From the IMG/VR virus record IMGVR_UViG_3300031760_000033, positions 11,727 through 75,726 of that record: DNA of 64,000 bases; one strand, given 5' to 3'. This DNA is from a virus (lineage: Duplodnaviria; Caudoviricetes). The position numbers were made by a program, and so were the translations under genes. Numbering within the stretch: position 1 is the first letter of the stretch; the number at the start of each line of letters is the position of its first letter. The notes beneath the pieces are model-generated. The model did not search any database, was not told the DNA's origin, and saw only the letters and a list, made by a program, of their open reading frames with translations. Positions 3,001 through 60,270 of the stretch are shown here, one piece after another.

Positions 3001-5696
3001 GTAAGGCAGGTATAACCGACTACGACTTTACTACCAATGCAGGAATGATTGCTGCGCTTGAAAAGGTAATGGAATATGCCACAAAGTTAGGCCCCGAGGC
3101 TGCCGCAGAAGTACAAAAGTACATTGACCAACTTGAAACAGAAATAACCATCAATGCACAAGTGCGCATCCGCGAGGACTTCGGACGCCAGATGGAGGAG
3201 GCTTTCAATGACTACGACCTCACACTCGAATTGCAAAACCTCGGAATCTCTGAGGATATGGCGAAAAACCTTTTCCCAGACTTGGACTACACATCCATAG
3301 GCAAGTTGCAGGAGATAATGAAGGATTTTTATGACTCCCGCCAAACAAAAGACGAGAAGGGAAATGTATTATTTTCCGTGAAAGACTTGGAGGAGTACAG
3401 GAAGTGGGCTGACAAAATTGACGCCGAAATACTTAAAGCCAGAAAAGAGAAGGTAAAGCAGTACAGTAAATACCTCGAAAAAGAGTATAGCGAGAGGGCT
3501 AAACTGGAAATGAAACACGCGCAGGATATTGCCTTCGTAACTGCAAATATTACTGATAAGGCCCAGCGTAAGAATATTATAGAAAATATAAACAGAAAGT
3601 ATCAAAACGACCTGAATGACTTAAACTGGAGGTCGTTCAAAGAGAGTGATTTTTATGTGGAAATGATGGACGATATATCATCACTCCCAAGAGAATATAT
3701 GCAGATGATGCTTGATAAAATTGAGGAGATTTTACAGCATCCAGAGACTCTCTCGCCCCGTGCTTTGAAAGAAGCCATCAATGCTCGTCAAAAGGTTTTA
3801 GAAGCCCAAATGAACTTGGAACCTTTGGATGTTATGCGCTCTTCCCTTACAACTATAAGGGAGGCTCAGCAGGATAAAGAGGTTGGTGGTAAGAATTGGA
3901 AACAAACCAAAGAAAACATCAATAAGGCTGTAGCGGAACAAGCTGAACTGATACAAGGTTATGACAACGAGATACAGCGTTTGCAGACTTTGCAGGGTGA
4001 ACTTGCTGGGTACGAAAAAGCCTTGGAGAACTTACAGAAGGCTGATTCAAATGTTGATATTCCTCTACTGAATAGAGTTCTCGGACTTGACGAGAATGGC
4101 AAGATAACATCAATGGAAGACCTGTCGGATGATGCAATACAGGAAGCCATTGACCGATTGACAACAGAAAACACTCAGGAAAAAGCAAAATACGATGCGA
4201 CCGTTCAGACTGATGAAATGAACGCTCGTGCGGTAGAAATCAGTGATAGAGAAAGGATAATAAAGTTACTTACCGATGAGTTGACAGCGAGAAGAGAGCT
4301 TTCAAATTATCAGATGTCAGATGCAGCAACCACGGCTGTCGCAACTGGCCAAACATCAACAAGTGTTGGCTCTGAGATTCAGGTTGTTCAAGGTAAAAAA
4401 GACACTTCTGTAAAAAAGATACAGAATTTCAAGCAATATCTTGAAGCGTTCACCCAATTTGATGCCGCGTTTGCAAAGTTTAATGCTGCAATCAATTCTA
4501 CATTGAACGCTGTTGCTGGTATGGGTAACGCTTTCTATGATATGTTCGATGCTCTTGGATGTAAGACCGATGCTCTGACAGAAGGATGGAAAGAGTTTGG
4601 CAATACGATGATTAGTAGTATTACCAATGCCCTCACAATGATACCGATGATGGTCGCGGCATTTACCGCAGCCGGCATAGCTATCAATTCTGCTATGAGT
4701 ATCATCGGTCTTATCGCCGAAGCTCTGAACTTGCTGATGACCGCTATTACTGCAATATCCAAACTGCACGATGCTGGGTATGAGAAGGAGATTGAGAACC
4801 AGCAAAAGAAGATTGATGAGTTGAAATCTGCCTATGAGCGTCTGGAGAAGGCCATAGAGAAGACTTGGACCACGATGTCCTATATCGACACCTACAATCA
4901 GCAGGTCGAGAATATCAAGCAGCAGATAGAGGCTCTGGAGGCCCAGCGTAGCGCAGAAAACTCCAAAAAGAACACTGATGAGGACAAGATACGCGAGTAC
5001 GGCGACTCCATACAAGAGGCATACGACGAACTGGAGGAACTGGAGCAGAAGCGTATCGAGGTGTTCGGCGGTGTCGGAGAGGTCAACTACAGGAGTGCTG
5101 CCGAGGAATTTGTCTCTGCATGGAAGGATGCCTTCCTTGAAACCGGCGACGGTCTGGAGGCATTGCAGGAACATTTCGATGAGTTCTTGCAGGAGTGGTT
5201 TGTGAAACAGGCCACGATGCGTATTGCCGGTGCTATGCTGGAACGTACTTTCCGAATGATTGACGAATCGGTCAATGAGAGTAGCGAGGGTGGTGTGGCC
5301 GTTACTATGGCAGAACTACAGGCCATCCGGGATGAGTTTGCTACTCAGGCCCCGCTTATCTCCGAGGCTTTGGAGGAGTTGGCTGGTATGTGGGACCTCG
5401 GTAACGGAGAAGGCTCTCTCAGCGGCCTTGCAGCCGGCATACAGGGCATGACCGAAGAACAAGCAAATATCCTCGAAGCATATTGGAACAGTGTCAGGAT
5501 GTACACTGCAAACCTCGATGTGAATGTCGAGCGTATTGCCAATATTCTTGGCGCCGGCGGCTCCGCAACCAACCCTCAGTTACAGCAGTTGCAGATAATA
5601 GCGCAGCACACTCAGGCCATTCATACACTGCTTGACAGTGTTACAAGAAGCGGACATCCGCAGGGAGGTCTTGGTATAAAGGTGTTTAACAACTAA
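9..5696 (+). CDS. Tail tape measure protein (probably 5'-truncated by the window edge)
   Basis: 1895 aa, helical/coiled-coil; TMP_3-like segment LRSIL...SPF...RLADVSAGLGVDMQRLILAYGQVKA...EIRQFTEAGVNI; hydrophobic A/I-rich stretches; frame is open to position 3. Confidence 0.92.
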   Translation: MRGVGISKDAFRSLVSELSGTDIKGARTIDIVTRLVDENGRKLTPASIKATIENITKDNKPQTLGLFQYKTSDLNTLQQMLAMSKKDAADLLSTVLKISNTSVGLNKTQGTAYSNALASRIKEEARARNKIIKLQERQLQLEQAIDRASSNKSGKTKFEGQMRSVADLNKELAKTARLISQQNAILQGSGRGQNVAKALGLGTAKKEADMLNNSLSKTIGLAQRLGYAFGIAFSAQGLVQFGRKLVETRGEFELQQVALRSILQNKQVADEIWDKTMQAALQSPFTAMQLTKYTKQLAAYRIETEKLFDTTKRLADVSAGLGVDMQRLILAYGQVKAANYLRASEIRQFTEAGVNILGELSTYLSKTRGEMISTAQVMDMVQKRMVKFEDVEAIFKRMTDAGGIFYEMQYIQSQTVKGQLNKLHDAYDQMLNNIGKANQGAIRDLVGLLNNIVKNWREWKTVIDLIAWPLIISTIYKFGRGLMYANASAILTKKSINGVTRAGARMQVMMKSLYTTMASNPWLAIAIAIAAATVALINHAKQVKFVQDQIMEQNTRLYETQEQLKGYQTTIENNNKAIKDNKTATDSNKLSTDELNKKKEENREILAKLTNDYPELVKNMKLEEDGTITLTDAITKYNDELERQMTLKNILAQNSGGSWLGDLFSDTYTTNLTEYMEGLSKLKGELISAQSMATTLQMRMHLAGEDNLPFYGALKQIKDLDLSDIEKAAGQYRNIIQSLYSDVLTGYTGEHNTPVYERSYVGGAKKYMSELPQLSSFPHDAPTAKKAMEENADVFMGMFEESISQISDYEKIITEKYNGDVAAFIADNTELINKGIVEGNADVVSTIRTVLQTQGGATTKEAKVWYNKVLNEYLTFHNAHAKIAALEAQVSAEREKKYKNQDHQLIADAQREIEEIKNSLIGVEEIDFFASSAKTNTNGTGGEDGKGDKTKENASRMLSLIKEMRSEYDKLAKSAYGYAKSEATVRESYKQSVKEILGKAGITDYDFTTNAGMIAALEKVMEYATKLGPEAAAEVQKYIDQLETEITINAQVRIREDFGRQMEEAFNDYDLTLELQNLGISEDMAKNLFPDLDYTSIGKLQEIMKDFYDSRQTKDEKGNVLFSVKDLEEYRKWADKIDAEILKARKEKVKQYSKYLEKEYSERAKLEMKHAQDIAFVTANITDKAQRKNIIENINRKYQNDLNDLNWRSFKESDFYVEMMDDISSLPREYMQMMLDKIEEILQHPETLSPRALKEAINARQKVLEAQMNLEPLDVMRSSLTTIREAQQDKEVGGKNWKQTKENINKAVAEQAELIQGYDNEIQRLQTLQGELAGYEKALENLQKADSNVDIPLLNRVLGLDENGKITSMEDLSDDAIQEAIDRLTTENTQEKAKYDATVQTDEMNARAVEISDRERIIKLLTDELTARRELSNYQMSDAATTAVATGQTSTSVGSEIQVVQGKKDTSVKKIQNFKQYLEAFTQFDAAFAKFNAAINSTLNAVAGMGNAFYDMFDALGCKTDALTEGWKEFGNTMISSITNALTMIPMMVAAFTAAGIAINSAMSIIGLIAEALNLLMTAITAISKLHDAGYEKEIENQQKKIDELKSAYERLEKAIEKTWTTMSYIDTYNQQVENIKQQIEALEAQRSAENSKKNTDEDKIREYGDSIQEAYDELEELEQKRIEVFGGVGEVNYRSAAEEFVSAWKDAFLETGDGLEALQEHFDEFLQEWFVKQATMRIAGAMLERTFRMIDESVNESSEGGVAVTMAELQAIRDEFATQAPLISEALEELAGMWDLGNGEGSLSGLAAGIQGMTEEQANILEAYWNSVRMYTANLDVNVERIANILGAGGSATNPQLQQLQIIAQHTQAIHTLLDSVTRSGHPQGGLGIKVFNN

Positions 5697-5708
5697 AAAC
5701 AAAATACA

Positions 5709-6272
5709 ATGGCAGACATTAACATCCTATCACCATTCATCCTCTCCTTCGAGGGAGGTTTTGCTAACCACCCGGCAGACAAGGGCGGTGCGACTAACAA
5801 AGGGGTCACGATTGCCACATGGCGTAAAGTTGGTTACGACAAGGATGGCGACGGCGACATCGACGTGGACGACCTGAAACTGATAACCGACCAAGAGGCT
5901 GTTGATGCAGTTCTCAGGCCCCACTACTGGAACCGCTGGAAGGCCGACCAAATCAAGAGTCAGTCTCTCGCGAACATCCTTGTCGATTGGGTTTGGGGTA
6001 GCGGCGCACACGGAATCAAGATACCACAGCAGCTCCTCGACGTTCCGGCTGACGGCATTGTCGGCCCGCAAACTCTCGCGGCCCTCAACGCCAAGAAGCC
6101 GGAGGCTTTCTTCAATCTCATCAAGAACAGAAGGGAGCAATTCTTCAATACCATCGTCAAAAAAGACCCGTCTCAGAAGGTATTTTTGAAAGGATGGCTG
6201 AGAAGACTCAATTCGATAAACTTTGGTTATCTGAAAGATAACCGTGGTCGAGTCATTCGGTTCAAAGAATAA
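5709..6272 (+). CDS. Endolysin, glycoside hydrolase family 108 with C-terminal PG-binding domain
   Basis: EGGFANHPADKGGATNKGVT catalytic motif; C-terminal FLKGWLRR; DKDGDGDID Ca-binding-like loop. Confidence 0.93.
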   Translation: MADINILSPFILSFEGGFANHPADKGGATNKGVTIATWRKVGYDKDGDGDIDVDDLKLITDQEAVDAVLRPHYWNRWKADQIKSQSLANILVDWVWGSGAHGIKIPQQLLDVPADGIVGPQTLAALNAKKPEAFFNLIKNRREQFFNTIVKKDPSQKVFLKGWLRRLNSINFGYLKDNRGRVIRFKE

Positions 6273-7284: not shown

Positions 7285-10200
7285 ATGAAGGAGAGGTTTT
7301 TGACCGTACTTGTCCCTGTCAAGGATAGCGACGTAACGCAGACATATCAAACGATGGCTGCGCTGCTTGCAAATGTTACACCGAGCATCGCCAACATCAA
7401 CAATATTTATGCCGTCGGCGCTCCTGTTTACAGCTATATGCGTACATGGCTCAATCCTGCCACAAACCAATACGAATTTCATCAGGTGGTTGACCGTGAG
7501 TTCCCGCACATTGGAAAGCCTCTCGAAATATTTGACTTCACCTATGATGCCACCCGTATGGGTTCGGCACCCACTATTACGGCTCAGGGTGTTATGTGGT
7601 ATGCTGACAAGGATTCCAGCGGCAACGACGTAACGCTGGAGGGCCTGTGGAGTCAGGAGTGCCATGTCAGTTTCAATGGCGAAAATTTCTATTTGAAACA
7701 GATACCCACGTCGAGTAAATCAAATGAGGACGCCAGATATAAATACGACATAGATTTCGTGTCTGAGCGCGTTGTTTTGGAGCGTGTGTACCTCTATGAC
7801 GTTGTGCAGCCGTTCGTGTCCTCCAAGCCTATTTCTGAGAGTGCTCAGTTCAGCTTCTATGGCGACATTACTGAGCTTGCAAAGCGCATCAATGCTAGCT
7901 TGCTTAGAAGCGGTTTGGCTTCTATTGCCCTGAGACCCGGAGTAACACCAGGAAGCTACCTGACATACGAAGAGTTCAACTCTGTGGGCCTCGGCACCTA
8001 TACTGGCACGAAGGACACCAGCGACCCATACCCGATTGTTTCGGGAGAAATGCAGTCGTACATCCATTATCCTCATGCCAATATCTACGAGCATTTTGGA
8101 GGCAATTACACCAAGTATTTGCTTAACCTTGTTTATTTTGTAGACAATCCTCAATCGTATCATATCGGCCCCGCAACCGGCGGCTATGATGAAATTTACG
8201 ACGGAGAACCGCGCTTGTCTGGATATAAATGCCTTATAGGTAAAGACAAGAAGGGTGTTATAACAACTTCCGAAGAGAAGCTTATTACTTTCGAGAATAA
8301 CACTATTCACGAGGCATTGCAGCAGTTCCATGACACATTTGGTCTGCAATACTATATCTTTCGCGATACAGATTCCAATGGTGATTTCACTGGCGATACC
8401 ATAATCATGGTAGCTGACTGCCAACACGATTTTGCCGATTGGGACGCTAATGCCGCTTCTGGAGAAGGTGATTACACCCGCGACAGTGATGGTATTCCTA
8501 CCACTACACATCCGTTCGACTATGGCGTTGAAGATGCTCTTCTGTCAAAGGAGAAAACAAACACCACTGACAAGATTATTACCCGGATTACCGGCGTGGG
8601 CAGCGAGGAGAATATACCTTGGTACTATCCCAACCCAAATGCGGACGGGTGGATTAGGCCGATGTATATGACGAATGGCGTAGAACAGTCTACGGCTATC
8701 AATTATCCTACGTCAGAAGGTACAACTGTAGCTGATTCTGTCAGGTACGAAAAATACCTAAAAAACAGAGTAACAGACGTATTCCAATTTGGCAAAAAGA
8801 TATGTACTGTAAATAAAAAAGCAAGTCTCGTAAGCAAATTCTCAACTTACACATCTTATGTAGACGAGACGTCAGCTAGACTTTGCTACGATTTCACATT
8901 GTCGTATGATGCTAGAATAAAATCCGATGGATTCTCATTAACAGGCTTATCAGCTTCAATAACATACTACCTATTTAAGGGAACGACGAACGTTACGGCG
9001 TCCGGAAACGCATTCTTAATCAATGGCGGTAGCGGGACATTGGAAGCTGGTGATTATCATCTTATCATAAACATAACATTCTCTGGTACAGGTCCAACAC
9101 CTGTAACTTCGGTTACGAAATACTATTATCCGGCAAAGAATCGAATTTGCGGATGGATAGATACATTTGGATTCGGAAACCTGAATGGGGCATTGGCAAT
9201 GGGCTTGGGAGTATTAGCGTTATCTGCTGTCATATCCGACTTATGTACAGGAGGTTTTGCTTGCCATTTACCGAGCTTCTTCTCTACTAATCCAAACTTA
9301 ACTTGGAATAACAGTTCCGATGGCTCAAAGATGGGTTGGTATGATGGCAACAGACGAATTGCTATTAGCGAAATGGAGTTTTGTGAGGCTAATTCTGAAA
9401 CATACGCCTTTATGGGTGGTAGTGGAGAGAAAGCTCTGGGTGTCGATGATGTGTACAAGGTGACTTGTGATAATGATACTTGGGTGTCATCTTATAACCT
9501 ACAGCTTAAGGGAATACAGTGGGACGATTGGGGTGACATCTATAGCCTATATATGGATTGGGTGAACGGTTTGCGGGCATCAAAACGCTCGGCTACTTCT
9601 ATTGAAGAGGTTGATGTCAGCGTAGACTCTTTTGTAAACAACAATGTGGCATTCGGTCTTACAGGGTACTTAACTGATGGATGGTATAAGAATAATAAAA
9701 AGTATGCTCTCGCTGATTTCGGAATCACTAACGAATCCACGCTAAATCAAAACGCTGACGTATTTGATACTATTGAATTTCAGCGTGTAAAATACGTTAC
9801 GCCGCAGACGCGGCTTATGCCAGAGTTGTATATCAAGACCGATGGAGAACGTCGTTTTTACAATGCTCATAACTACTATGTCAATGGAAGTCTTCTGACT
9901 GGAACAGCCGACCCGATGATAGGAGAGGTGCAGTCTGGCACAAAGGTCAAGAATCCTCTGTATAAGGAGAAAGAAACGGATGCAGATAACAAGCATTATC
10001 AGTTTGAAAATGAATACGTCCAGATAATGCCGCATGAGCATATTGAGGAGTTCGATGATGTAAAACCGACCATCAAGGGTCAGCAAAGCTATATTCGTGC
10101 TTATCCAACAGAAGACGATTTTTATCTCGACCCAACATCTTTCTATGAGAAGATTCAGGGGCAATATATTCAATGCACTACCGAAACGGTTTATAGCGAC

Positions 10201-12834: not shown

Positions 12835-15800
12835 ATGGCTTACACAAACATTGATGACTTACTTAACAAAGTCGAGAATGAAGGAATGAACGAGCAGGGC
12901 CGACTTGGTGCCAGTGAGTTCAACCGCCTCGCTCAGGCTGTCAAGGAGTGTCAGGGTGGTGCCAAGAGTGTCAAGTTCGGTGGTCTAGACCCGATTGCAC
13001 CAAATGATGACGGTGTTGTTGTCATTCCGATGGTTTCAGACAGTTGGACTGGCTCACTGCGGTTGCAGCGTAAGGTTATCCAAGACTATGAGGAGGTATA
13101 TGTCGCCGTCGCAGACGATGGCTCCTATCTCTACAAAGACACGGACGTGCCTGTACGCTTTCAGTTCCGCGAGTACCGAATACGCACCAATGACGACACG
13201 GGCGATACGGAGTATCAGCCTTCCAACAAGGAGGTCACGGTGAAGATTCTGAAACCGACACTCACGGGCCGTCAGGAGCTTTACTCGTTTACCTACACCG
13301 CCAAGGCTTTCGCCAGCACGGAATGGCTGGAACTGAACTTGCAGCCTTACCTCTCTGCCGGCGACAACAACCTCATCTTCGAGGTCAGCAACACGTCATC
13401 CGGCGAGACGCCATCGGTGTCGTTCACCATTCAGGCGGCCAACCTGAACCTTCGTGTCGCCGATGACAACAACTGGAACAACACCGCTCTGGTGGTTGGC
13501 ACGGACAACAGCCTCACGGTCGAGTATTATGCCAACGGTGCTGTTGACCGCACCCTCTGCGTCAAGTTCACAGGCGCCAGCGGAACGACATCCACACACC
13601 GCATCTTCGTCCCCAAGGCGACGGCTTCCACGACTGTTACGTCCGAGACGTTCACGGCCACGGAAGATACCGTCAGCTTCTTCTCAGAGGGCCTGAAAAA
13701 GGTCGAGGCTTGGATTGAGGCCGGTGAGGGTGATGACATTGTTACCAGCAACGTGGTGGTGAATAACATCATTGCCGTCCAATCCGGCTCCACGAACAAG
13801 TATGTGGCCATCCAAGGCTGCATCGAGAGTATGCTGAACTTCGAGGCTGCTACGATGTTTGGCTACAACATCTACACTCCTGAGCCTCCTGCGACTGTTA
13901 CCTTCGTTATCGCAGACTCCACGAAGACCAATGTCTATCTGGAAGTTCCGATAGCAAACAGGACTGTCAATACGCTCTACGAGTTTGCCAGCGTCCTGAG
14001 CATCCAGTCCTCTCTCCCCAGCATCCATGTCTATGTGTTTGCTAAGATTGATGGGACCTACGTCAACAGCGGAAATCCTCTCGCAGACTTCCTTGTTGAT
14101 AACAGCGAGGACTTCGGCGCCGTGGAAGGTGCAGACTTCTACCTGAACCCTATGCTTCGTAGCAATCAGGAGGAGAACCCCATGCGTATCATCAACGCTA
14201 TGGATAACACCGTTGTCACCTCAGACCCGTCGAATTTCCATAACATCAGCTTCCAGCCCGGTGTTGACGGTTGGGTGGAACAGAACAACATCCGTTTCCT
14301 GCGTCTTCTCGCCGGCAGTACACTGACTATCCCCTACGACATCTATTCGCAGTTTACCGATAACTCCAGACACGGCCTCACCATTGAGATTGACTTTGCC
14401 GTCCGCAATATCACCAACGAGGAGGACCCGATTCTGACTATCGGCAACCGCAATGCTTCCAACCCGAAGGGTGTCTATATGAAGGCCCTGAATGGCGCCT
14501 TCATGAACCGAAGCAATACGTCGTGGGATTCTGCTGACGTGAGTTGGCAGGAAGGTGTCAGAACACGTCTGGTGTTCAACTTCCAGCACAACTACAACCT
14601 TGTAAGCGCAGAGAGTGGCCGTGGACGTGCAGAATCCGCTACCATCGCAATTATCCGTGCCTATATCAACGGTGTCATCAACCGCGAGGTCAGGGTTGCG
14701 GATGTGAGCAATGCCAACGAAATCAATGCCGGTGGCGACATCGTTATTGGCCAGTCAGGTTGTGACATAGACATCTATGGCATCCGTGTATATAAGAGGA
14801 GCATCACCCCAGAGCAGGTGGTGAAAAACTATATCTCTACCCTCCCTACTGTGGCAGAGAAGAAGGAAATCCACGATGACAACGACATCCTCGATAACGG
14901 TGTTGTGAGCTTTGAGAAGGCTCTTGCAGCTGGTTACAACTGTATTGTGTGGCACGGAACCCACATAAGCCGCCGCTATAAGGATAATCCTAAGCGTTAT
15001 GGCTATTACGAAATCTACCGGCACAATGCCGACGGCACTCTTGACCGTGCTCACTCCGGCATCCAGTACGGTGTCGAGGGCAGCGGTCAGGGTACTACTG
15101 CCATGACCTATGCCGAGTGGAACTACAGCTTCAAGGAGGACAAGAAGAAAGGCTCCGGCCACGACGAGTATAAGTACGACGTCAACGGCACGTTGAAGAA
15201 TGTTTTTGTTGACTTGGACGGAGTTGTGGCTTTCGGTGCTGCGGAGAATAAGCAGAAGTTTGGCTACCAGCTGAAATCCGGCATCCCTGTGGCAAAGAAA
15301 CTTGTCGGCAAAATCAACTACGCCTCCCCGATGCAGTCGCACAAGATGGGTGCCTGTAACCTCTATAACGACCTCTACGCCAGTTGCGTGGCAGGTTTCG
15401 GTGAGAGCGGCTACTCCTTCGACCAGACGGACTGCATTACAGACTTTTCGTCCGGCCAGCGTATAACAGTCATCGAGGAACCTTTCCTGTACTTTGTTCA
15501 GGAGGTTGAGGGCGCCGACAATGCTTTGAAAGTCTTTAAGGGCCTCAGCACTTTCGGTCCCGGTAAGGCCGACAAGCCTACTTGGGGTGTTACCGACGCT
15601 TCACTTCTCGTCGGCGACAGTCTTGTCGAAGGTGCTTTGAACAATAACCCCTTGACTGATATGCGTGTGCCGTTTGTTGACACAATCGACAGCGCAACAG
15701 GTCGTTATGTTTGTGAGTATCAGATAAGCAATGACAAAGGCGACAAGGTGGAGGCTTTCGTATATGCTGGTGCCAAGAACATAAATTGGGGATTCGGCGA

Positions 15801-18800
15801 CACTCTTGAACTGCATGACAGCGCGAATGTTGTATGGCCCGGTGTCCGAGAAGGCGACCAGACCAATGCGGACGCTCCCACCACGAGACAGGTGAAACTC
15901 TGGCAGCCTATCTTCAACTTCCTGTATCTGATGAACACCAAGATAGCGCCGTGGAAAGGGCCGAATGGTGATGGTCAGAACGCCAAATTGAGCCAGTTGA
16001 ACATTGCTGTGCTTTCCAATAGTTTCGACAGCAGTGTGGCCTACTGGATGATTGACAGCGACGCCGGCGAAGGCTATGCCAAGTTCGACCTCTTCCGCTG
16101 CCACTACAAGGCTGACGGCACGAGACAGTACGTCCCCGCAGGTATTCACCTTGTGCAGGGCCAGTACACATTCGAGAATTTTGCCTGTCTGTACGACCTC
16201 ACGGCTTCGCCAACAGGTGTTACCGGGTACAGCGAGTCCGACCTCTGGTACGACGTCAGCAACCCTGCCAACGATACACGCAATATCACCCTGAATTTGC
16301 AGACAGAGCTTAACGCCGTCAAGACCAAGAACGGTCTCACTGACGTTATTAACTACAGCGCCGATGTGGATGCCGTCAACACGGCCATGAAGAAGTTTAT
16401 CTGCAAGATTTTCAGGCTGTACGTTGACAACAACGTGTACCTGAACAAGAAGAGCGTCCAGTTCCACCACGAGACTATGGTTCTCTGGGCCGGCACCGAC
16501 AACCGCTCGAAAAACACCTACTACCGCCTCAATCCCTATGCCGTTCAGACGTTGAATGATACCGGTCACAACTGGCCCAATATGGAAATGAATGACGATG
16601 ACCTCGACACCATTTTCAAGACAAACAACTCCGGCATACAGTCGAAGCCTTATTGGGTGCTGGAATCTGATGCAGACCCGGTTACGGGCTACCATTGGGA
16701 GGGTCAGGACAATGTGCTGAACAACACACTCAACGATGCCTACGGCTACGGGTTCCTAGAAACCGGCGACAAGCAGATGGAGTTGTCGAACATGATGGGA
16801 CGTATCTTCAATGCTATGGTGGCACTCGCCAACGGCCAGACTATGCCTGACGGCACGGCTGTCAGCGCCGACCCCATCGGATGCTTTGACTTCTATTTCT
16901 TCTACATCCAAAAGTATTTCCCGGCTGTGGCCTACAATGAGACGGCCCGCATCCGCTACGAGATTCCAGCCGTGCTGTACCGCTCTCAGGCAGCGGACGA
17001 TGGCGGCGAGGATTACCCGCAAGACCCGATAAGCCAATCTCTTGGCGACCAGTACGATAGCGAGAAAGAGTACATCCGCAAGCGCGTTACCATGCTGGCC
17101 GGATATGCCGGCTACCGTATGAGTCAGTTCGGCTTCCGTGGCTATGCAGGTTCCTATGCCGTGGCTCTGAAACCTCACCAGTACATCTACCCGATGCACG
17201 AGGTTGGCGACCAGAGAAGCTCGTCGCCCGTGCGCTCGATGACTCGTGTGGCCCCCGGAACGACATTCAACCTTTCCTTCGACAACAACAGCGCCACCAA
17301 CGGTGTGTACTTCTACTTCATAGGCTCGATGCGAGAAATCGGCAACATCGCCTCTTGGGGTAACGGTACATACTCTGGCGAGGCTGAGACCACGGCTATG
17401 GCACCCAATGCCGCCCGTTTGGTACGCTTCGATATGTACAGCGCTGATGCCGAGGGAGTGGTTTTCAACCCCAGAGCCGGTGCTTTCAATCTGGCCGCGT
17501 GTCAGAATTTGGAGCACATCGACGTGCATAACGCATACAGGTTGAGTGGTTTGGACGGTTTAACCAATCTTGTCCGCTTACAGGACATTGATTGCCGTGG
17601 AACAGCCCTCACTACGTTAGGTTTACCTAGCACACCTGCGCTCGTTTCACTGAAACTCCCCGCCACTTTCGAGGAGCTGAACGTGCAGGATTGCCCCAAT
17701 CTTGCCACGCTCCAGTTCGACGATTACGAGAATTTGGAGAGCTTCGTCATCGGCGGCAGCACTCAGGTCAGCACTAAGGAGATACTGATGGGTGTGTACG
17801 GCTACAACATCACGCAGGAGGCCAATGTTATCCAGACAATCTCGCTTGACGGCATTGCTTGGACTGGCGTCAACTGGACCTTCTTGGAGTGGTTGCTAAC
17901 CGTTACCAATCTGCACATCACTGGCACCATCGCCATGTCCGAAGGTACAGCCGGTCAGATTAGCTTCTCGTTGAAGAAGAGACTCATCGAGCGTTTTGGC
18001 AACGTGGATAGCGAGAGCAATCCTCTCTACATCGACTATACCCGCTCGACCCTCAGCGGTATCTCTGTCAGCGGCGACGGTTACTTTGATGCCGTCGGCG
18101 AGGTAAAACACTACGACCTCATCCCAAATGCCGCCACAGGCAACACCATTCAGTCTTACCAGTGGGCCTTGTCCGGCGCCAACGCTAACATGGGTAGTGT
18201 TGATGCCCTCGGAAACGTAACCTGTCTTGCTATGGGTTCCGAGGCGGCGGCTCCCACGGCCACCCTGACTTGCACGGTAACTCTGACCAACGGCAACATA
18301 CTTACAGCCTCGATGGATATTCGTTTCTATTTCCGTCAGGCTATGGTGGGCGACTTCGTGTACCACGGTGGCACATGGGATAACAGATACAATGCCAGCA
18401 AGGAAGTTATTGGTATCTGCTTTATGTGTGACCCAATCACGGAGAACGGTGAGGTTGTCGGTTACGACCGCCGCATGTGTGCCCTGAAAGACATCGGAGC
18501 CTATCAATGGGGATTGTACAACAACTCCACATTCGGTTCCAATGGCTTCGCCTCCGACTTGAAGTATGATACCAACAATGATGGCACTCCTGATACATCA
18601 CCATTCAACGTGCCGTATATCAGCGAGCTTACGTCAAATGGAGGTAAGGTCCAGTCAAATACCGTGGATTGCACATCCTATAGTGTTGGTGATAATTATC
18701 AGTATGTCAGGTTCGGCACTATGATTGACCCTCAGACTGGCGATTTCTTTAAGTATGGCAATAATGTAGCCTTTGGTTGTATGGCTCTCGTTGAGCTTTC

Positions 18801-19491
18801 GTCACTAATGAAGGAAAACGTGTTTCCTGATGACGACCTGTTCGCCGCGACTACGAAGGTGCCGCAGGGTCTCAAAGATACCGCCGGCATCATCTACCAC
18901 CGCAACAGAGTTCTCGCTGGTACGACATACACGGGCGACGCCAGCACTCAGGATGACGATGTAAACTACGGCATTGAGTTCAAGACTGACCCCGACATTG
19001 ACGCTTCTCCCGGAAATGTCGCTTTGCAGATTTCCAAGATTAGAACATTTGCCACCAATACGTTATCTTCCTCTTATCCAAATGTTTACTCGCAGTACCT
19101 CTATCCTGCTGCAAGTATGGCATACGCATACGAGCCGAAGAAACCTGATGGTACGGATATTCCGGGTCTGCTTCCAAAGTTCAAGAAGCACCACTGGTAT
19201 CTGCCGAGTTCCGGTGAACTGTGCCGCCTTGCATACTTCACCCTGATATGCTACAGCGGCTCGTCGTACTACGTCAGTCAGGCCAATGGCAACCCCTACG
19301 GCGACATATTTGCCAATGCTGTTGCCAATCTTGGAACGAGATTCAGTAGATTCAACACGTCGTCGAACTACTGGACGTCCACGGAGTACTACACCAACAA
19401 CGCTTGGTACGTCGACTTCACCAGTGGTGGCGTCGACGGCGGCGGCGGCAAGTACCGCTCGTTAGCAGTGAGGGCGTGTGCCGCGTTCTAA
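12835..19491 (+). CDS. Giant tail fibre / receptor-binding protein; DGR target 1 (LamG-like, CotH-kinase-like, LRR, Ig-like, C-terminal C-type-lectin fold with VR1)
   Basis: 2218 aa; LamG-like IRAYINGV...IDIYGIRVY; D-x4-N (GTDNRSKN) plus DLDT; LRR-like LEHIDVHN/LQDIDCRG; ends NYWTSTEY...AWYVDF...SLAVRACAAF. Confidence 0.85.
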   Translation: MAYTNIDDLLNKVENEGMNEQGRLGASEFNRLAQAVKECQGGAKSVKFGGLDPIAPNDDGVVVIPMVSDSWTGSLRLQRKVIQDYEEVYVAVADDGSYLYKDTDVPVRFQFREYRIRTNDDTGDTEYQPSNKEVTVKILKPTLTGRQELYSFTYTAKAFASTEWLELNLQPYLSAGDNNLIFEVSNTSSGETPSVSFTIQAANLNLRVADDNNWNNTALVVGTDNSLTVEYYANGAVDRTLCVKFTGASGTTSTHRIFVPKATASTTVTSETFTATEDTVSFFSEGLKKVEAWIEAGEGDDIVTSNVVVNNIIAVQSGSTNKYVAIQGCIESMLNFEAATMFGYNIYTPEPPATVTFVIADSTKTNVYLEVPIANRTVNTLYEFASVLSIQSSLPSIHVYVFAKIDGTYVNSGNPLADFLVDNSEDFGAVEGADFYLNPMLRSNQEENPMRIINAMDNTVVTSDPSNFHNISFQPGVDGWVEQNNIRFLRLLAGSTLTIPYDIYSQFTDNSRHGLTIEIDFAVRNITNEEDPILTIGNRNASNPKGVYMKALNGAFMNRSNTSWDSADVSWQEGVRTRLVFNFQHNYNLVSAESGRGRAESATIAIIRAYINGVINREVRVADVSNANEINAGGDIVIGQSGCDIDIYGIRVYKRSITPEQVVKNYISTLPTVAEKKEIHDDNDILDNGVVSFEKALAAGYNCIVWHGTHISRRYKDNPKRYGYYEIYRHNADGTLDRAHSGIQYGVEGSGQGTTAMTYAEWNYSFKEDKKKGSGHDEYKYDVNGTLKNVFVDLDGVVAFGAAENKQKFGYQLKSGIPVAKKLVGKINYASPMQSHKMGACNLYNDLYASCVAGFGESGYSFDQTDCITDFSSGQRITVIEEPFLYFVQEVEGADNALKVFKGLSTFGPGKADKPTWGVTDASLLVGDSLVEGALNNNPLTDMRVPFVDTIDSATGRYVCEYQISNDKGDKVEAFVYAGAKNINWGFGDTLELHDSANVVWPGVREGDQTNADAPTTRQVKLWQPIFNFLYLMNTKIAPWKGPNGDGQNAKLSQLNIAVLSNSFDSSVAYWMIDSDAGEGYAKFDLFRCHYKADGTRQYVPAGIHLVQGQYTFENFACLYDLTASPTGVTGYSESDLWYDVSNPANDTRNITLNLQTELNAVKTKNGLTDVINYSADVDAVNTAMKKFICKIFRLYVDNNVYLNKKSVQFHHETMVLWAGTDNRSKNTYYRLNPYAVQTLNDTGHNWPNMEMNDDDLDTIFKTNNSGIQSKPYWVLESDADPVTGYHWEGQDNVLNNTLNDAYGYGFLETGDKQMELSNMMGRIFNAMVALANGQTMPDGTAVSADPIGCFDFYFFYIQKYFPAVAYNETARIRYEIPAVLYRSQAADDGGEDYPQDPISQSLGDQYDSEKEYIRKRVTMLAGYAGYRMSQFGFRGYAGSYAVALKPHQYIYPMHEVGDQRSSSPVRSMTRVAPGTTFNLSFDNNSATNGVYFYFIGSMREIGNIASWGNGTYSGEAETTAMAPNAARLVRFDMYSADAEGVVFNPRAGAFNLAACQNLEHIDVHNAYRLSGLDGLTNLVRLQDIDCRGTALTTLGLPSTPALVSLKLPATFEELNVQDCPNLATLQFDDYENLESFVIGGSTQVSTKEILMGVYGYNITQEANVIQTISLDGIAWTGVNWTFLEWLLTVTNLHITGTIAMSEGTAGQISFSLKKRLIERFGNVDSESNPLYIDYTRSTLSGISVSGDGYFDAVGEVKHYDLIPNAATGNTIQSYQWALSGANANMGSVDALGNVTCLAMGSEAAAPTATLTCTVTLTNGNILTASMDIRFYFRQAMVGDFVYHGGTWDNRYNASKEVIGICFMCDPITENGEVVGYDRRMCALKDIGAYQWGLYNNSTFGSNGFASDLKYDTNNDGTPDTSPFNVPYISELTSNGGKVQSNTVDCTSYSVGDNYQYVRFGTMIDPQTGDFFKYGNNVAFGCMALVELSSLMKENVFPDDDLFAATTKVPQGLKDTAGIIYHRNRVLAGTTYTGDASTQDDDVNYGIEFKTDPDIDASPGNVALQISKIRTFATNTLSSSYPNVYSQYLYPAASMAYAYEPKKPDGTDIPGLLPKFKKHHWYLPSSGELCRLAYFTLICYSGSSYYVSQANGNPYGDIFANAVANLGTRFSRFNTSSNYWTSTEYYTNNAWYVDFTSGGVDGGGGKYRSLAVRACAAF
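19355..19485 (+). repeat. DGR variable repeat VR1
   Basis: 131 nt versus the 128-nt TR (20177-20304): 17 substitutions, all at TR adenines (14 G, 2 T, 1 C), plus one extra codon. Confidence 0.97.
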
Positions 19492-19503: not shown

Positions 19504-19548
19504 GTCATCGTCCGGCTGGTCTTTGACGACCAGCCGGCGGACGATGAC
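19504..19548 (+). promoter_or_regulatory. DGR target-recognition hairpin/cruciform downstream of the VR1 IMH
   Basis: GTCATCGTCC-GGCTGGTC [TTTGAC] GACCAGCC-(GGC)-GGACGATGAC; 8 plus 10 bp stem. Confidence 0.8.
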
Positions 19549-19621: not shown

Positions 19622-20062
19622 GTGAAAGCGGAGCAGTCATCATTATACCGGTCTATTGAGAGACTACACCTGTGGGCGCTTGAAACTTTCGATAACGCTC
19701 CTAACAAGCCAGCGGTTCAGGCCGACATCAAGCTTGTTATGGAGAATATCATGCAAGCTCAATCCGCCACTAATGTCGCTCTCAATCTCCCGGACGGCAA
19801 ACAGAAATTAGACCTCCTCGACGTGGTGGTGATGAGCATGACTAATGTAAAATCTATCACAAGGGTACTGTCCGAGTTTTCGGACAAGCCAAACAAGAAG
19901 GACGCTGCGTCAACTGGCGAGACCGTCCTGAGTCCGTCGAGGACCCGTGTAATTTCCCGCAAACAGAGAGTTCCGTTAATTGAACTGATGACTGATATTA
20001 GTAATCAGCTGGGACGCTGGAAATCCAAGGTGGCGAAGATTTGCGCCACGAGTGAGCCGTAA
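19622..20062 (+). CDS. avd: DGR accessory variability determinant (Avd-like four-helix bundle)
   Basis: 146-aa helical protein between VR and TR; C-terminal ISNQLGRW resembles the Avd I..xLGGW motif. Confidence 0.8.
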   Translation: MKAEQSSLYRSIERLHLWALETFDNAPNKPAVQADIKLVMENIMQAQSATNVALNLPDGKQKLDLLDVVVMSMTNVKSITRVLSEFSDKPNKKDAASTGETVLSPSRTRVISRKQRVPLIELMTDISNQLGRWKSKVAKICATSEP

Positions 20063-20082: not shown

Positions 20083-21501
20083 ATGAGGGATGTTTCTTTT
20101 TTTGAATTGAACGGGCGTATGACTAACGAAGCCTTCGAGAAGGGCCGGTTAGTTAAGAATAAGGTACAATACGCATACACGTCATCGAACTACTGGACGT
20201 CCACGGAGTACAACACCAACAACGCTTGGAACGTCAACTTCACCAATGGTAACGTCAACAACAACAACAAGTACAACTCGTTAACAGTGAGGGCGTGTGC
20301 CGCGCTTGATGAAAAAAGAAAAGAGGCTTGGATAGTCGCATTTGATGACTGCTGCCGCCACAAGAAATCTTCCGATAACTGCATCAGATACAGAGTAATA
20401 TACGAAGAAGACCTGTTCATTCTCGCCGCCGAGGTTGAGACGGGCATCTACCAGCCTTCAATATCTGTATGTTTCTGTGTTACAAGACCTAAACTCAGAG
20501 AGGTATTTGCCGCAAACTTCCGAGACCGCATAGTCCACCATTGGCTCATGCTCAAACTCAACCCACTGTTCGAGCAGAGGTTCGAGGAGCAGGGTAATGT
20601 GAGCTTCAACTGCCGCAAGGGTTACGGCACGTTGCGGGCTGTATGGGCGCTCCGCGAGGATATGCGGATAGTCAGCGAGAACTACACCAGCGACGATTGC
20701 TACGTCGGCAGTTTTGACTTCATAGGCTTCTTTATGAGCGCCGACAAAGAGATTCTGCTGGCCCAGCTCAAATGGTTCGTGTATGAGAAATACAAGGAGC
20801 CCGATGTCGATATAGTGTGGAGGACTCTTGAGGTAGTGGTCAGGCACAACCCTGCAAAAAACTGCGTAAAGCACGGGAATATACATCTTTTCGACGAGCT
20901 GCCTCCGCATAAAACTCTGTTCAAGACTCCAGACGGTAAAGGTATGCCGATTGGCAACCTCACCTCTCAAATACTGCTGAACTTCTACCTGTCGTTCTTC
21001 GACGAGAAGATGATTGCGTTCTGCAAAAAGCGTGGTGGCCGGTACGAGCGTTTCGTTGACGACTTCACCGTCGTCATGAAGCGTGTCGAGGATGTCGTGG
21101 CCGCGTTCAGGTATGCCGACGAGATTGCAACATCTATGCTGAAAATCAACTTGCACAAAGACAAGGTATATATCCAGCACTACTCGAAGGGCGTAAAGTT
21201 CGTCGGTTACGTCATCAAGTTCAACCGGGTGTACCTCTCCAACAGGACATACGGCGGTTTTCAGAACTGTGTAGTTCATGCGGCTCGCGTATGCCAGTCC
21301 GAGAAGATAGACATCGCGGAGCTGGCCCATATCGCGTCCTCGCTTAACTCATACGTCGGCTTTACCTGCCACACCAATGGGTACGCCATGACGACAAAGA
21401 TACTCTACTCCGAGTCTGCCTTAGGCAGATGCTTCTACTTCAAGACGAAGCGACAAGTGGTAAAAATCAAGAAAGAATATAAAATACAACCTGTTATATG
21501 A
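20083..21501 (+). CDS. DGR reverse transcriptase (TR read in frame at the N-terminus)
   Basis: KLREVFAANFRDRIVHH, GMPIGNLTSQILLNFYL (DGR SQ motif), RFVDD catalytic motif, KGVKFVGY. Confidence 0.95.
   Translation: MRDVSFFELNGRMTNEAFEKGRLVKNKVQYAYTSSNYWTSTEYNTNNAWNVNFTNGNVNNNNKYNSLTVRACAALDEKRKEAWIVAFDDCCRHKKSSDNCIRYRVIYEEDLFILAAEVETGIYQPSISVCFCVTRPKLREVFAANFRDRIVHHWLMLKLNPLFEQRFEEQGNVSFNCRKGYGTLRAVWALREDMRIVSENYTSDDCYVGSFDFIGFFMSADKEILLAQLKWFVYEKYKEPDVDIVWRTLEVVVRHNPAKNCVKHGNIHLFDELPPHKTLFKTPDGKGMPIGNLTSQILLNFYLSFFDEKMIAFCKKRGGRYERFVDDFTVVMKRVEDVVAAFRYADEIATSMLKINLHKDKVYIQHYSKGVKFVGYVIKFNRVYLSNRTYGGFQNCVVHAARVCQSEKIDIAELAHIASSLNSYVGFTCHTNGYAMTTKILYSESALGRCFYFKTKRQVVKIKKEYKIQPVI
20177..20304 (+). 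repeat. DGR template repeat (TR) with IMH*
   Basis: AAC-rich 128-nt copy of both VRs; ends GTGAGGGCGTGTGCCGCG-CTT whereas both VRs end GCCGCG-TTC. Confidence 0.97.
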
Positions 21502-46838: not shown

Positions 46839-47105
46839 TTATTCTCCTTTCATATAGTTTTTGAAATCCTCGATAAATTCTTCTTTTGATGTAATTGACT
46901 CTATCGCTGTACCAAAAGTAACAACTTCAACCCTATCGTATAGTTTATAATTTAGGTATCTTGCCGCCTTCTTAATAAAGGAATCAGTGCGGGTGTATTC
47001 AATGTCATTCTTAGTAAGTCTTTTAGGCATCCACTCGAGTACGAGTGTACCATTTACAAGACTTTCAAACAGATAAATCTTCTCAGGTGCTTCGTTTTCT
47101 TTCAT
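46839..47105 (-). CDS. Hypothetical protein
   Basis: APEKIYL...DIEYTRTDSFIKKA...FIEDFKNYMKGE. Confidence 0.65.
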   Translation of the reverse strand: MKENEAPEKIYLFESLVNGTLVLEWMPKRLTKNDIEYTRTDSFIKKAARYLNYKLYDRVEVVTFGTAIESITSKEEFIEDFKNYMKGE

Positions 47106-52047: not shown

Positions 52048-53244
52048 TTATATGACAACATATTGACGCTTCATTGTTCCGACCAATGTCGATAACTCCA
52101 CGTCCGCTATCCCGTCCACCACGGGTGATATTTCTCCTATGAGATTCTGCTTCTGCAAGCCGAATCTCTTTATATTCACTGCTGCTAGCAAGTCGCGGTC
52201 GTTGTGCCGTCCACACTGCGGGCAATCCCACTCTCGGTCTTTTAGTGTCAAGTTTTTATTGATATACCCGCATAGGCACATTTTAGAACTTGGCTCGAAG
52301 CGACCGATACGAATAAGATTTTTTCCATACCAGTCGCATTTGTATTGCAACTGACGGAAGAACTCAGACCAACTTGCAGAAGAGATATGTTTGGCGAGGC
52401 TGTGATTTTTGAGCATACCACTCACATTCAAGTCCTCAATAATTACCGTTTGGTTTTCGCGGACAATTCTTGAAGTAACTTGGTGAATGAAATTTTCGCG
52501 TCTATTGCATATTTTTTCATGTTGCTTTGCAACTGCTATCTTCGCTCTTTCTCTCCTTTTACTTTCTTTCTGTTTTCTTGAAAGGCGTTTTTGTAATACT
52601 TTTAGTCGTTTTTCATCTTTCTCAAAAAATTTAGGGTTAGAATAAACTTGACCGTTTGATAGGACTGCAAAATCCTTTATTCCGACATCAATACCAACTG
52701 CGGTGTCAGTCGTTATCGGTGCTTTCTGCGGTAGCGGCTTTCCGTCATCAACAAGAATGGAAATATAATACTTTCCGGTAGGGGTCTTTGATATTGTACA
52801 AGTGCCTATTTTGCCATCAAAACTTCTATTTTTACCAAACTTAACCCATCCGCATTTTGGCAATTTTATATGATGTGTTTCAAAATTTATAGACACATCT
52901 TTGACGACTTGAAAAGATTTCTTATTTTGCTTTTTTGAACGGAACTTTGGAAATCCTCTCTTTTCTCTGAAAAATTTTGTAAAAGACGAGTCTAAATTTC
53001 TAATTGAGCATTGTAGAGTTTGTATGGAAATTTCGTTTAACCAATAGGTTTCTTTTTGTTTTTTTAGGTTGGTTAATTGCTTACAACTTTCTACCCAAGA
53101 AATGCGAGTGCCGTCTTTTTGGTAGGCTTCGATACGCTGATTAAGTGCCCAATTATAGACAAATCTAACACAACCAAACGACTTCTCGAAGAAAGTAATT
53201 TGCTCATTGTTAGGATATAATCTATACTTGTATGTCTTAATCAT
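52048..53244 (-). CDS. tnpB: TnpB RNA-guided endonuclease (IS200/IS605 family, no TnpA)
   Basis: KTYKYRLYP HTH; RuvC D (GIDVGIK), E (IIEDL), D (DRDLLAAVNI); Zn ribbon CLCG/CPQCG. Confidence 0.95.
   Translation of the reverse strand: MIKTYKYRLYPNNEQITFFEKSFGCVRFVYNWALNQRIEAYQKDGTRISWVESCKQLTNLKKQKETYWLNEISIQTLQCSIRNLDSSFTKFFREKRGFPKFRSKKQNKKSFQVVKDVSINFETHHIKLPKCGWVKFGKNRSFDGKIGTCTISKTPTGKYYISILVDDGKPLPQKAPITTDTAVGIDVGIKDFAVLSNGQVYSNPKFFEKDEKRLKVLQKRLSRKQKESKRRERAKIAVAKQHEKICNRRENFIHQVTSRIVRENQTVIIEDLNVSGMLKNHSLAKHISSASWSEFFRQLQYKCDWYGKNLIRIGRFEPSSKMCLCGYINKNLTLKDREWDCPQCGRHNDRDLLAAVNIKRFGLQKQNLIGEISPVVDGIADVELSTLVGTMKRQYVVI
52063..52200 (-). ncRNA. Predicted TnpB omega-RNA scaffold / right end (5' boundary approximate)
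   Basis: Hairpins at 52111-52125 and 52076-52096; ends GAAGCG-TCAA at 52063; putative guide TATGTTGTCATATAACGACA follows. Confidence 0.6.
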
Positions 53245-53573: not shown

Positions 53574-53840
53574 TTAATCTACGACTTTCACCTCTTCGAT
53601 TGGGTGCTCTTTTGCCCACTGAAGTTTGAGGTCGTTCATACGGCGTTCGACGTCGTGCTGGCGTGCGGTGTGTTCGTCGCGCTGCTTGTTCACGACTTCT
53701 TTGTAATAGTCGTTTTCGTTGCGTATGCGTTCGGTGTGTTCCTTGTTCAAGGTGTCAAGGATTTCGCGATTTTTTTTCGCGTTAGACTGCTGCTCCTCAC
53801 GGAGTTCTTGCATTTTTGTGAGATACTGTTCTCTGTTCAT
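53574..53840 (-). CDS. Coiled-coil hypothetical protein
   Basis: 88 aa, E/R/Q-rich. Confidence 0.7.
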   Translation of the reverse strand: MNREQYLTKMQELREEQQSNAKKNREILDTLNKEHTERIRNENDYYKEVVNKQRDEHTARQHDVERRMNDLKLQWAKEHPIEEVKVVD

Positions 53841-55951: not shown

Positions 55952-56239
55952 TTAGTCTATTACTGATTTGATACTTTCGATTGCGGACTCTATGTCAAGC
56001 GAGGCTTCTTTCAGAGTCCAGTTAGAACAATCCAGCCTGTCGAAGCGGGATGAACACTGCAAGCCTTTCGGTAGGTTGTCGTAAATATCCATGCCGGCGT
56101 TGGCCATCTTTTCGATGACTTTCTGCTGCTCGGATAACGTCCTCACCACTTGGAGTAGTGTACCCCTGCTTTCTTTGTTCAGGATTGTCTTCTCGCTTTT
56201 TTCACGGGCCTCGCTCCGCTTCCGGTCGAATAATGACAT
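55952..56239 (-). CDS. Hypothetical helical protein (paralog of 57464-57700)
   Basis: NK..R.T...IE.M...D.Y.NLP.G.Q.S.R shared. Confidence 0.7.
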   Translation of the reverse strand: MSLFDRKRSEAREKSEKTILNKESRGTLLQVVRTLSEQQKVIEKMANAGMDIYDNLPKGLQCSSRFDRLDCSNWTLKEASLDIESAIESIKSVID

Positions 56240-56343: not shown

Positions 56344-56371
56344 TAGGGAAGGACATCAAAGTCCGTCCCTA
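56344..56371 (-). promoter_or_regulatory. DGR target-recognition hairpin downstream of the VR2 IMH
   Basis: TAGGGA-C-GGAC[TTTGAT]GTCC-T-TCCCTA; same loop as the VR1 hairpin. Confidence 0.75.
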
Positions 56372-56385
56372 TAATGTTTTAAGTC

Positions 56386-56994
56386 TTAGTGCTTGAACGC
56401 GGCACACGCCCTCACTGCCAACGAGTAGTACTTGAAGCTGCCGTAGTAGTAGACGCCACCATAGGTGAAGTTGACGAACCAAGCGCCGCTGGTGCCGTAC
56501 TCCGCGGACGTCCAGTAGTAACCTTTCAGCTCGTCGCCACCAATCTCTCGAATAGCGGCATTGATTTCGTCGCGGTAGGCAGCCATGAGGAGGCCCTGCT
56601 TGTGGGAGAAGGTTTCCTTCCCGACCTCTTTGAGGCGTTTCATGGCATCGGGCCACTCATATTCCTTGCCGTCATCAAGGTCGTGAGCCTCGATGAACAT
56701 ATCCACGTCGCCGATACAGAAGCGAACACCCTTCTGGCCGTCCTGCTCGGCAATGCTGACGATGGGGACTCGCTCGAAGTTCGGGCAATCGTGCTTCTCG
56801 GCAATGAGAGGATGGAAGGTCTCGGCGTGTTGGCATCCACATCCGGGGATGTACTCCACCTCAGGCTGGCTCTCCCAATCCTTGCCGTACATTTCTGCCA
56901 TGAGTTCGTTGGCAATCTTGACTACGTTCTTGATTTCGTAGTCTTGGTGAATCATGGCGATGATAATCTGATGTCTTTGTTCTTGCTTTGTCAT
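56386..56994 (-). CDS. Remote DGR target 2: small C-type-lectin-fold (DUF1566-like) protein
   Basis: 202 aa, no signal peptide or TM; ends YYWTSAEYGTSGAWFVNFTYGGVYYYGSFKYYSLAVRACAAFKH. Confidence 0.9.
   Translation of the reverse strand: MTKQEQRHQIIIAMIHQDYEIKNVVKIANELMAEMYGKDWESQPEVEYIPGCGCQHAETFHPLIAEKHDCPNFERVPIVSIAEQDGQKGVRFCIGDVDMFIEAHDLDDGKEYEWPDAMKRLKEVGKETFSHKQGLLMAAYRDEINAAIREIGGDELKGYYWTSAEYGTSGAWFVNFTYGGVYYYGSFKYYSLAVRACAAFKH
56398..56520 (-). repeat. DGR variable repeat VR2
   Basis: 123 nt versus 117 nt of TR (20188-20304): 20 substitutions, all at TR adenines (12 G, 8 T), plus two extra NNC codons. Confidence 0.96.
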
Positions 56995-57463: not shown

Positions 57464-57700
57464 TTAGCCCTCCCCCTGTGCTTCGCTGAGGTAGTCGAGG
57501 GCTTCGTCGAGGCTGTTGGCTGCTGCCTCCAAACTCTCGATGCCTTCGTACATCGCGGTTCCACGGTCGCTGTCTTGGATGCCCTCAGGGAGGTTTTCGT
57601 ACTTGTCGTTCTCTTCCTCCTGCATTTCCTCAATGCCGGACTTTATTTCTTCGAGAGACTCTTTCCATCCGTCGATGGTCTTGCGTTGGTTCTTGTTCAT
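57464..57700 (-). CDS. Acidic helical-hairpin protein (paralog of 55952-56239)
   Basis: MNKNQRK...EEE.DKYENLPEGIQDSDRG...LE.A. Confidence 0.75.
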   Translation of the reverse strand: MNKNQRKTIDGWKESLEEIKSGIEEMQEEENDKYENLPEGIQDSDRGTAMYEGIESLEAAANSLDEALDYLSEAQGEG

Positions 57701-59895: not shown

Positions 59896-60270
59896 TTACT
59901 TTTTGATGATTTTGAACTTGCCACTATGAAGCCACCGGCGTATCTCCTGCCAGTTTTTTCGATATGGCGGGTCTTTATAGTTGTCAAGGATGCAGTCAAC
60001 ACAAGCGGTGATTACATCCATATCTTTCTTTGGCACGAGCACGAACTCTTCTTTGATGTTCTTGGCTTTCTCATACTCCTGCGCCGTGATACGCCTGATG
60101 CCACACTCTTCAAGTGCTGCGTTGTATTTCGATATGTCGAATCCGTATCGAAGACCAACCTCCTCAATGAAGTTGTCAAGGGTCTCACCGGCATACGAGA
60201 TACCTCCAGTATCAGTGTTGTCATCGTGAAGTTTTATTTTCTTCGCGATAGCTCTTGTTACTCTCATCAT
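59896..60270 (-). CDS. Hypothetical protein
   Basis: 124-aa ORF. Confidence 0.6.
   Translation of the reverse strand: MMRVTRAIAKKIKLHDDNTDTGGISYAGETLDNFIEEVGLRYGFDISKYNAALEECGIRRITAQEYEKAKNIKEEFVLVPKKDMDVITACVDCILDNYKDPPYRKNWQEIRRWLHSGKFKIIKK

Follow-up and report, generated by a model that had tools for sequence, protein, structure and literature searches.

Reports of phage DGRs with a distal second target go back to 2017-2021. In Quimbyvirus the second target (ORF 80/84) lies distal to the structural module and on the opposite strand, and was read as a non-structural protein engaged in phage-host conflict (Benler et al. 2021, PMC8008677); four induced prophage species were later described whose second VR is likewise distal and lies near counter-defence genes (Dahlman et al. 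2025, PMC12629997). Bacuni phages also carry a distant target, which the authors read as a fimbrial-tip-like adhesin (Hedzet et al. 2021, PMC8143477), and for phage-associated DGRs Wu et al. noted many targets that are non-adjacent yet within 50 kb. In the literature we searched, no function for a distal second DGR target was found.

The window (the whole stretch of viral DNA analysed here, 64,000 nt) comes from a partial phage contig of 75.7 kb whose close relatives measure 85-95 kb. The records of these relatives suggest an origin in the ruminant gut, and the phage itself is probably rumen-dwelling with a host among the Bacteroidota; the two pointers to that host are the Prevotella sp. MAG label of one member of the VR1-protein cluster and the related Bacteroides phages. 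The best matches to its TerL are C3_41T2LP and LoVEphage-like phages, at 28-29% identity, and no relatives were found in GTDB genomes. A DGR directly follows the tail module, in the order 2218-aa target, probable Avd, template repeat (TR) and reverse transcriptase (RT), and a second target lies far from it:

12835..19491, + strand: proximal target gene, 2218 aa, at the end of the tail module (sequence and family searches)
19355..19485, + strand: VR1, with 17 substitutions at TR adenines and a 3-nt insertion
19504..19548, + strand: hairpin after VR1, loop TTTGAC
19622..20062, + strand: probable Avd accessory gene, a 146-aa ORF, assigned by position only
20083..21501, + strand: DGR reverse transcriptase ORF (RVT_1, E 6e-9; phrog_1423, E 1e-51)
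20177..20304, + strand: TR, in frame within a 5' extension of the RT ORF
56344..56371, - strand: DNA hairpin after VR2, loop TTTGAT, one stem mismatch at 56350
56386..56994, - strand: remote DGR target gene, 202 aa (AlphaFold and structure search; weak Pfam Lcl_C match)
56398..56520, - strand (read 56520-56398): VR2, 20 substitutions, each at a TR adenine; AAC tract longer by 6 nt; GC-rich, IMH-like end

The RT ORF is uninterrupted and retains FVDD and IGNLTSQ motifs, and the remote target shares its replicon with a cognate, intact DGR-type RT and TR. The 146-aa ORF in the Avd position has no family match in Pfam or PHROGs. No third DGR target was found anywhere in the 75.7-kb contig, and scans with the TR pattern gave 0 viral matches and 1 metagenome match.

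An initial annotation of the window, made from its letters, had described the 202-aa gene as a second target 36 kb from the DGR and on the opposite strand, with adenine-restricted substitutions, the same IMH as VR1 and a TTTGAY hairpin of its own, and each of these points was borne out. Aligned with the matching portion of the TR (20188-20304, + strand, 117 nt, 40 A), VR2 differs by substitution at 20 positions, 20/20 of them TR adenines, and there are 0 mismatches at the 46+28 non-A positions of the two ungapped blocks; the hypergeometric probability of hitting A 20 times out of 20 is ~1e-11. What had been missed is that the AAC tract of VR2 carries an in-frame insertion of 6 nt; it gives six codons where the TR has four, and accounts for the 123-nt length of VR2. 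VR1 and VR2 have an identical 3' end (a GC-rich stretch, then TTC) at which the TR has CTT, and the hairpin loop starts 38 nt beyond the end of VR2 and 37 nt beyond that of VR1. The distance from TR to VR2 is 36.1 kb. Judged from sequence, the gene is a real and well-supported DGR target, and it is almost certain that its family is diversified by DGRs.

One TR with a tail-region target and a distal C-type-lectin (CLec) target is the arrangement of Quimbyvirus and of the prophages of Dahlman et al., and as in Quimbyvirus the remote target is on the opposite strand. Unlike Quimbyvirus, the window has an RT encoded by a single ORF and no methyltransferase island among the ORFs scanned. Orthology to a Quimbyvirus-type remote target was considered and rejected: gp58 of PV4-TP1, which we infer to be a Quimbyvirus/LoVEphage-like phage and used as a stand-in, has no sequence match to the window family. 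The likeness extends to sequence for the distal DUF1566 target of Bacuni F1 (locus tag 00026) and gp76 of BS-TP1, proteins of ~200-225 aa with a short leader and an Lcl_C-type CLec domain, encoded remote from the RT and with an adenine-specific VR. In a search of 7 sequences, an HMM of the scaffold without the VR matched Bacuni F1 (E 4e-7) and BS-TP1 gp76 (E 2e-9), and matched neither the VR1 protein nor PV4-TP1 gp58. However, the window target is only 33-35% identical to the Bacuni F1 and BS-TP1 proteins over the C-terminal part and its leader is different; the Bacuni remote target, moreover, is on the same strand as its RT, whereas that of the window is opposite. In BS-TP1, a cultured Bacteroides salyersiae phage, gp76 (5572-6243 of its record) lies ~51 kb from the RT on the opposite strand and shows 11/11 adenine-only changes.

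With Bordetella phage BPP-1 and its target Mtd the window shares the target-avd-TR-RT order, adenine mutagenesis, an IMH with hairpin and the CLec fold, but Mtd forms the trimeric tip of a virion fibre and has further domains, and BPP-1 has one target (in part after PMC10743442). The tgt2 proteins of the nd4/nd12 phages (Baykov et al. 2023, PMC10743442) are likewise small, single-CLec second targets, sometimes with an optional N-terminal helical motif, but are of DUF6273 type and were described within the DGR cassette. Tentaclins begin with an N-terminal CLec domain to which Ig domains are joined (PMC10743442); the CLec domain of the window protein is C-terminal and its AlphaFold model contains no Ig domain, which rules out a tentaclin.

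Evidence for diversification of the remote target comes from its relatives. In a set of 22 orthologues whose scaffolds are >=88% identical, variation is found at the adenine-containing codons of the TR and other codons are nearly invariant; positions derived from AAC take many residues. An AAG-encoded lysine is retained in 22/22 orthologues despite its two adenines, to which sequence context may contribute. In close relatives pN of the scaffold core is 0.005-0.03 against a pS of 0.075-0.16, while pN of the VR is 0.16-0.24, so that the scaffold is, by these estimates, under purifying selection. Orthologue variation and purifying selection together rule out a fossil at the level of the whole family, an outcome that the initial annotation had allowed for. 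The adenine footprint recurs in the nucleotide TR/VR2 pairs of a relative from the same sample, of a second close relative and of an unrelated integrated prophage whose two targets lie ~41 kb apart.

The window TR has G at a position where two related TRs have A, and most VRs of relatives carry A there; both VR1 and VR2 of the window carry G. The simplest reading of this shared marker suggests that both were rewritten from the window TR. Across the RT cluster the TR is almost constant and always has four AAC codons in its tract, whereas the loop spans 4-5 codons in VR1 and 4-6 in VR2. Such variation in length would fit slippage of the RT on AAC repeats, as proposed previously (PMC5758913); the codon insertions are, for that reason, not a new mechanism.

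The homing signal after VR2 is less uniform. The window hairpin is mispaired (C.T) in its stem at 56350, a mismatch unseen in any relative having the VR2-type hairpin, the stem being perfect in five close relatives (-7.7 vs -12.3 kcal/mol). In L003 and L006 the hairpin is retained through a compensatory pair change, in L026 and L027 it is lost, and in L030 the RT is split. Given the mismatch, the window copy of VR2 may home less often, or the mismatch could instead be an assembly error. A complete 85-kb relative (G001; L006, L011) keeps both target genes and their hairpins together with only a remnant of the RT, and its small target has lost most of the leader. Two protein clusters with other leaders (P0047 and P0070) have VRs that are nearly fixed across 11 and 9 sequences; these are possibly domesticated copies, or the product of clonal sampling. 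In some RT records (P0213, P0075, P0294, P0302) VR-like residues have taken the place of part of the TR peptide, which would represent assembly chimeras or VR-to-TR conversion.

The 202-aa protein is modelled by AlphaFold2 as a helical hairpin leader (residues 3-36), a disordered linker (47-74) and a compact domain (~76-202), with pLDDT of ~90 over residues 81-170 and 75-94 across the VR, and VR2 is predicted to occupy the C-terminus of a C-type-lectin fold. The Pfam Lcl_C match is weak (E 0.006, under the curated cut-off); the lectin fold suspected at the outset nevertheless holds up in the model and in structure comparison, where the closest structure is the C-terminal domain of Legionella Lcl (Z 13.1, rmsd 4.7, 115 aligned), with further matches to Bdellovibrio Bd2740 (Z 11.6, rmsd 2.4, 104 aligned) and to Mtd (Z 7.9). 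Neither a signal peptide nor a TM segment is present, as had been noted, the maximum hydropathy being 0.77 over 19 residues. The protein has no match in PHROGs or PADLOC, a search of the ESM Atlas with leader residues 1-45 gave no usable feature match, and an HMM of the leader matched no paralogue elsewhere in the genome of the window phage. A homotrimer prediction scored 0.09, which counts neither for nor against a trimer.

The same family was sought in other phages by profile search and is represented by 243 sequences at E <=1e-10, the best 150 of which are for the most part small, at about 110-260 aa. Of 151 full-core members 18 lack a leader, and the leaders of the remainder form 45 BLAST clusters, a variety that could in part reflect start-calling noise or passenger fusions; a signal or lipobox is found in only one of the 151. 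Some leaders resemble window ORFs: one, that of the first member of a tandem pair in L001, is homologous to the free-standing ORF 59896-60270 (E 7e-20), a second to part of the ORF that ends at 47102, and a further one weakly to 53574-53840. The tandem pair itself (9323-9910 and 10001-10594 of L001) comprises two family members, each with a hairpin, that match two different TR types, and lies in a different context, near amidase and glucosaminidase genes.

A virion tip protein is expected to retain its attachment segment. With about 45 types of leader, or none, the family has no conserved virion anchor, which favours a free, soluble binder; an Mtd-like tail-fibre tip was rejected on the grounds that conserved N-terminal attachment domains are absent and that the gene lies outside the tail module. 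The initial annotation had described the protein as hypervariable and apparently cytoplasmic. That it is a real remote target, diversified across the population, stands, and from its location and modular leaders we consider it quite likely that the protein is indeed not part of the virion.

Encoded antisense to the structural module, the gene belongs to a series of small ORFs lying upstream of an AAA_25 ATPase gene and a weakly processivity-factor-like gene. It had been placed among small early host-takeover genes; the small ORFs are there, but a host-takeover character is not apparent from the neighbours, which are small uncharacterised ORFs, a WYL_2 gene (called by Pfam on the orthologous gene in L002), the AAA_25 ATPase and the processivity-factor-like gene. 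No recognised anti-defence gene was found among the neighbours, and the subset of ORFs scanned within 7 kb contained no methyltransferase, MutY-like nuclease or tRNA ligase, the nearest N6-methyltransferase found being ~7.7 kb away. Two phrog_4068 homologues (55952-56239 and 57464-57700) flank the target gene, and a TnpB/IS605 OrfB-like gene occupies 52048-53244 (Pfam on the gene of the same length in L002 and L026) and is absent there in L025. A scan for promoters and terminators stayed at shuffle level, so that early expression is argued from gene context only. Comparable positions are seen elsewhere: the family homologue of the unrelated prophage lies between YqaJ and an AAA gene, the remote target of Bacuni F1 between a DNA polymerase and a methyltransferase, and that of PV4-TP1 likewise has an early or replication-side position.

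Homing of adenine-mutagenised cDNA from TR to VR is the established mechanism of DGRs. The footprint seen here indicates that in this phage a single DGR sends such cDNA from its TR both into the tail-module gene and into the remote gene, each homing locus bearing an IMH-like 3' end and a hairpin, and that RT slippage on the AAC tract would add codons, varying loop length as well. The remote gene would sit, by its context, in an early, replication-side transcript, and most likely it encodes a C-type-lectin binder that is soluble and not part of the virion, with the ~125-aa core as its working unit and an exchangeable leader. The surface, rich in Tyr/Gly/Ser/Asn, would most likely engage some variable protein within the infected cell, for example a host defence component, and variants neutralising the factor of a given host strain would be selected. 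As a whole this explanation, a DGR-diversified, soluble intracellular binder of a host protein that varies between strains, for instance a defence component, has in our estimate a probability of roughly 0.55. Against it count the extracellular adhesins that are the closest structures to the domain, the lack of a recognised anti-defence neighbour and the frequent decay of copies among relatives. An anti-defence function specifically is plausible at somewhat less than even odds. More tentative still is the picture of an antibody-like, continually re-randomised intracellular inhibitor of strain-variable host defence proteins, in which a mobile lectin-VR-hairpin cassette would enter early operons and fuse to small genes.

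The adhesin structures lead to a different reading, in which the protein is an auxiliary adhesin, either decorating the virion or released at lysis to bind surface glycans or receptors. Structurally it comes closest to adhesins and pilin tips (Lcl, Bd2740, BACOVA_04982, TvpA), and this is how small second targets have been interpreted before (Hedzet et al. 2021, PMC8143477; Baykov et al. 2023, PMC10743442). The residue preferences of VR2, moreover, are the same as those of VR1. A Tyr-rich VR2 and a Gly-rich VR1 had been taken to imply different ligands, a claim that fails: at AAC-derived positions Tyr and Gly make up 29% and 21% in VR1 vs 31% and 16% in VR2 (Fisher P 0.73 for Tyr and 0.27 for Gly; 12 VR1 and 23 VR2 variants). 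The contrast is, on these sequences, a sampling effect, and the variants therefore point to no different class of ligand. An adhesin is nonetheless unlikely, since no attachment segment is conserved and 18 family members are bare cores, the gene is far from the structural module as well as antisense to it, and host range in Bacuni tracked the RT-proximal VR (PMC8143477).

Distinctly unlikely, in our estimate, is an intracellular protein whose ligand comes from a competing phage or mobile element, or which acts as a sensor tuning the phage's own replication or lysis decision. The position among replication and recombination genes would suit it, as would one look-alike domain fused to a kinase in Bacteroidota, which is a lead only; however, the 202-aa protein has no effector domain, leaders are exchangeable, and the temperate example appears to lie in a lytic early operon rather than in a cassette expressed during lysogeny. 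It might finally be argued that the window copy, though diversified in the past, has since suffered damage to its homing hairpin and is by now frozen or close to neutral. The C.T mismatch, the loss of hairpin or RT in other copies and the near-fixed VRs of two related clusters all lean that way, but VR2 shows zero non-adenine change, its ORF and the RT are intact, it shares the TR marker base, its scaffold is under purifying selection, and the mismatch could be an assembly error; we regard this as very unlikely.

The intracellular binder remains our preferred reading. Its novelty had been overrated by the initial annotation, because Quimbyvirus (PMC8008677) and four induced prophage species (PMC12629997) had already been published with the same arrangement and the same inference. 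What the window locus adds is a large series of orthologues, evidence of purifying selection and an exchangeability of leaders that favours a non-virion role. With no cultured host and a damaged hairpin, the window phage is a poor experimental entry; the cultured Bacuni F1 and BS-TP1 carry homologues and are better systems. If these proteins are indeed adaptive intracellular binders, targeted hypermutation in such phages would serve counter-defence as well as host range.
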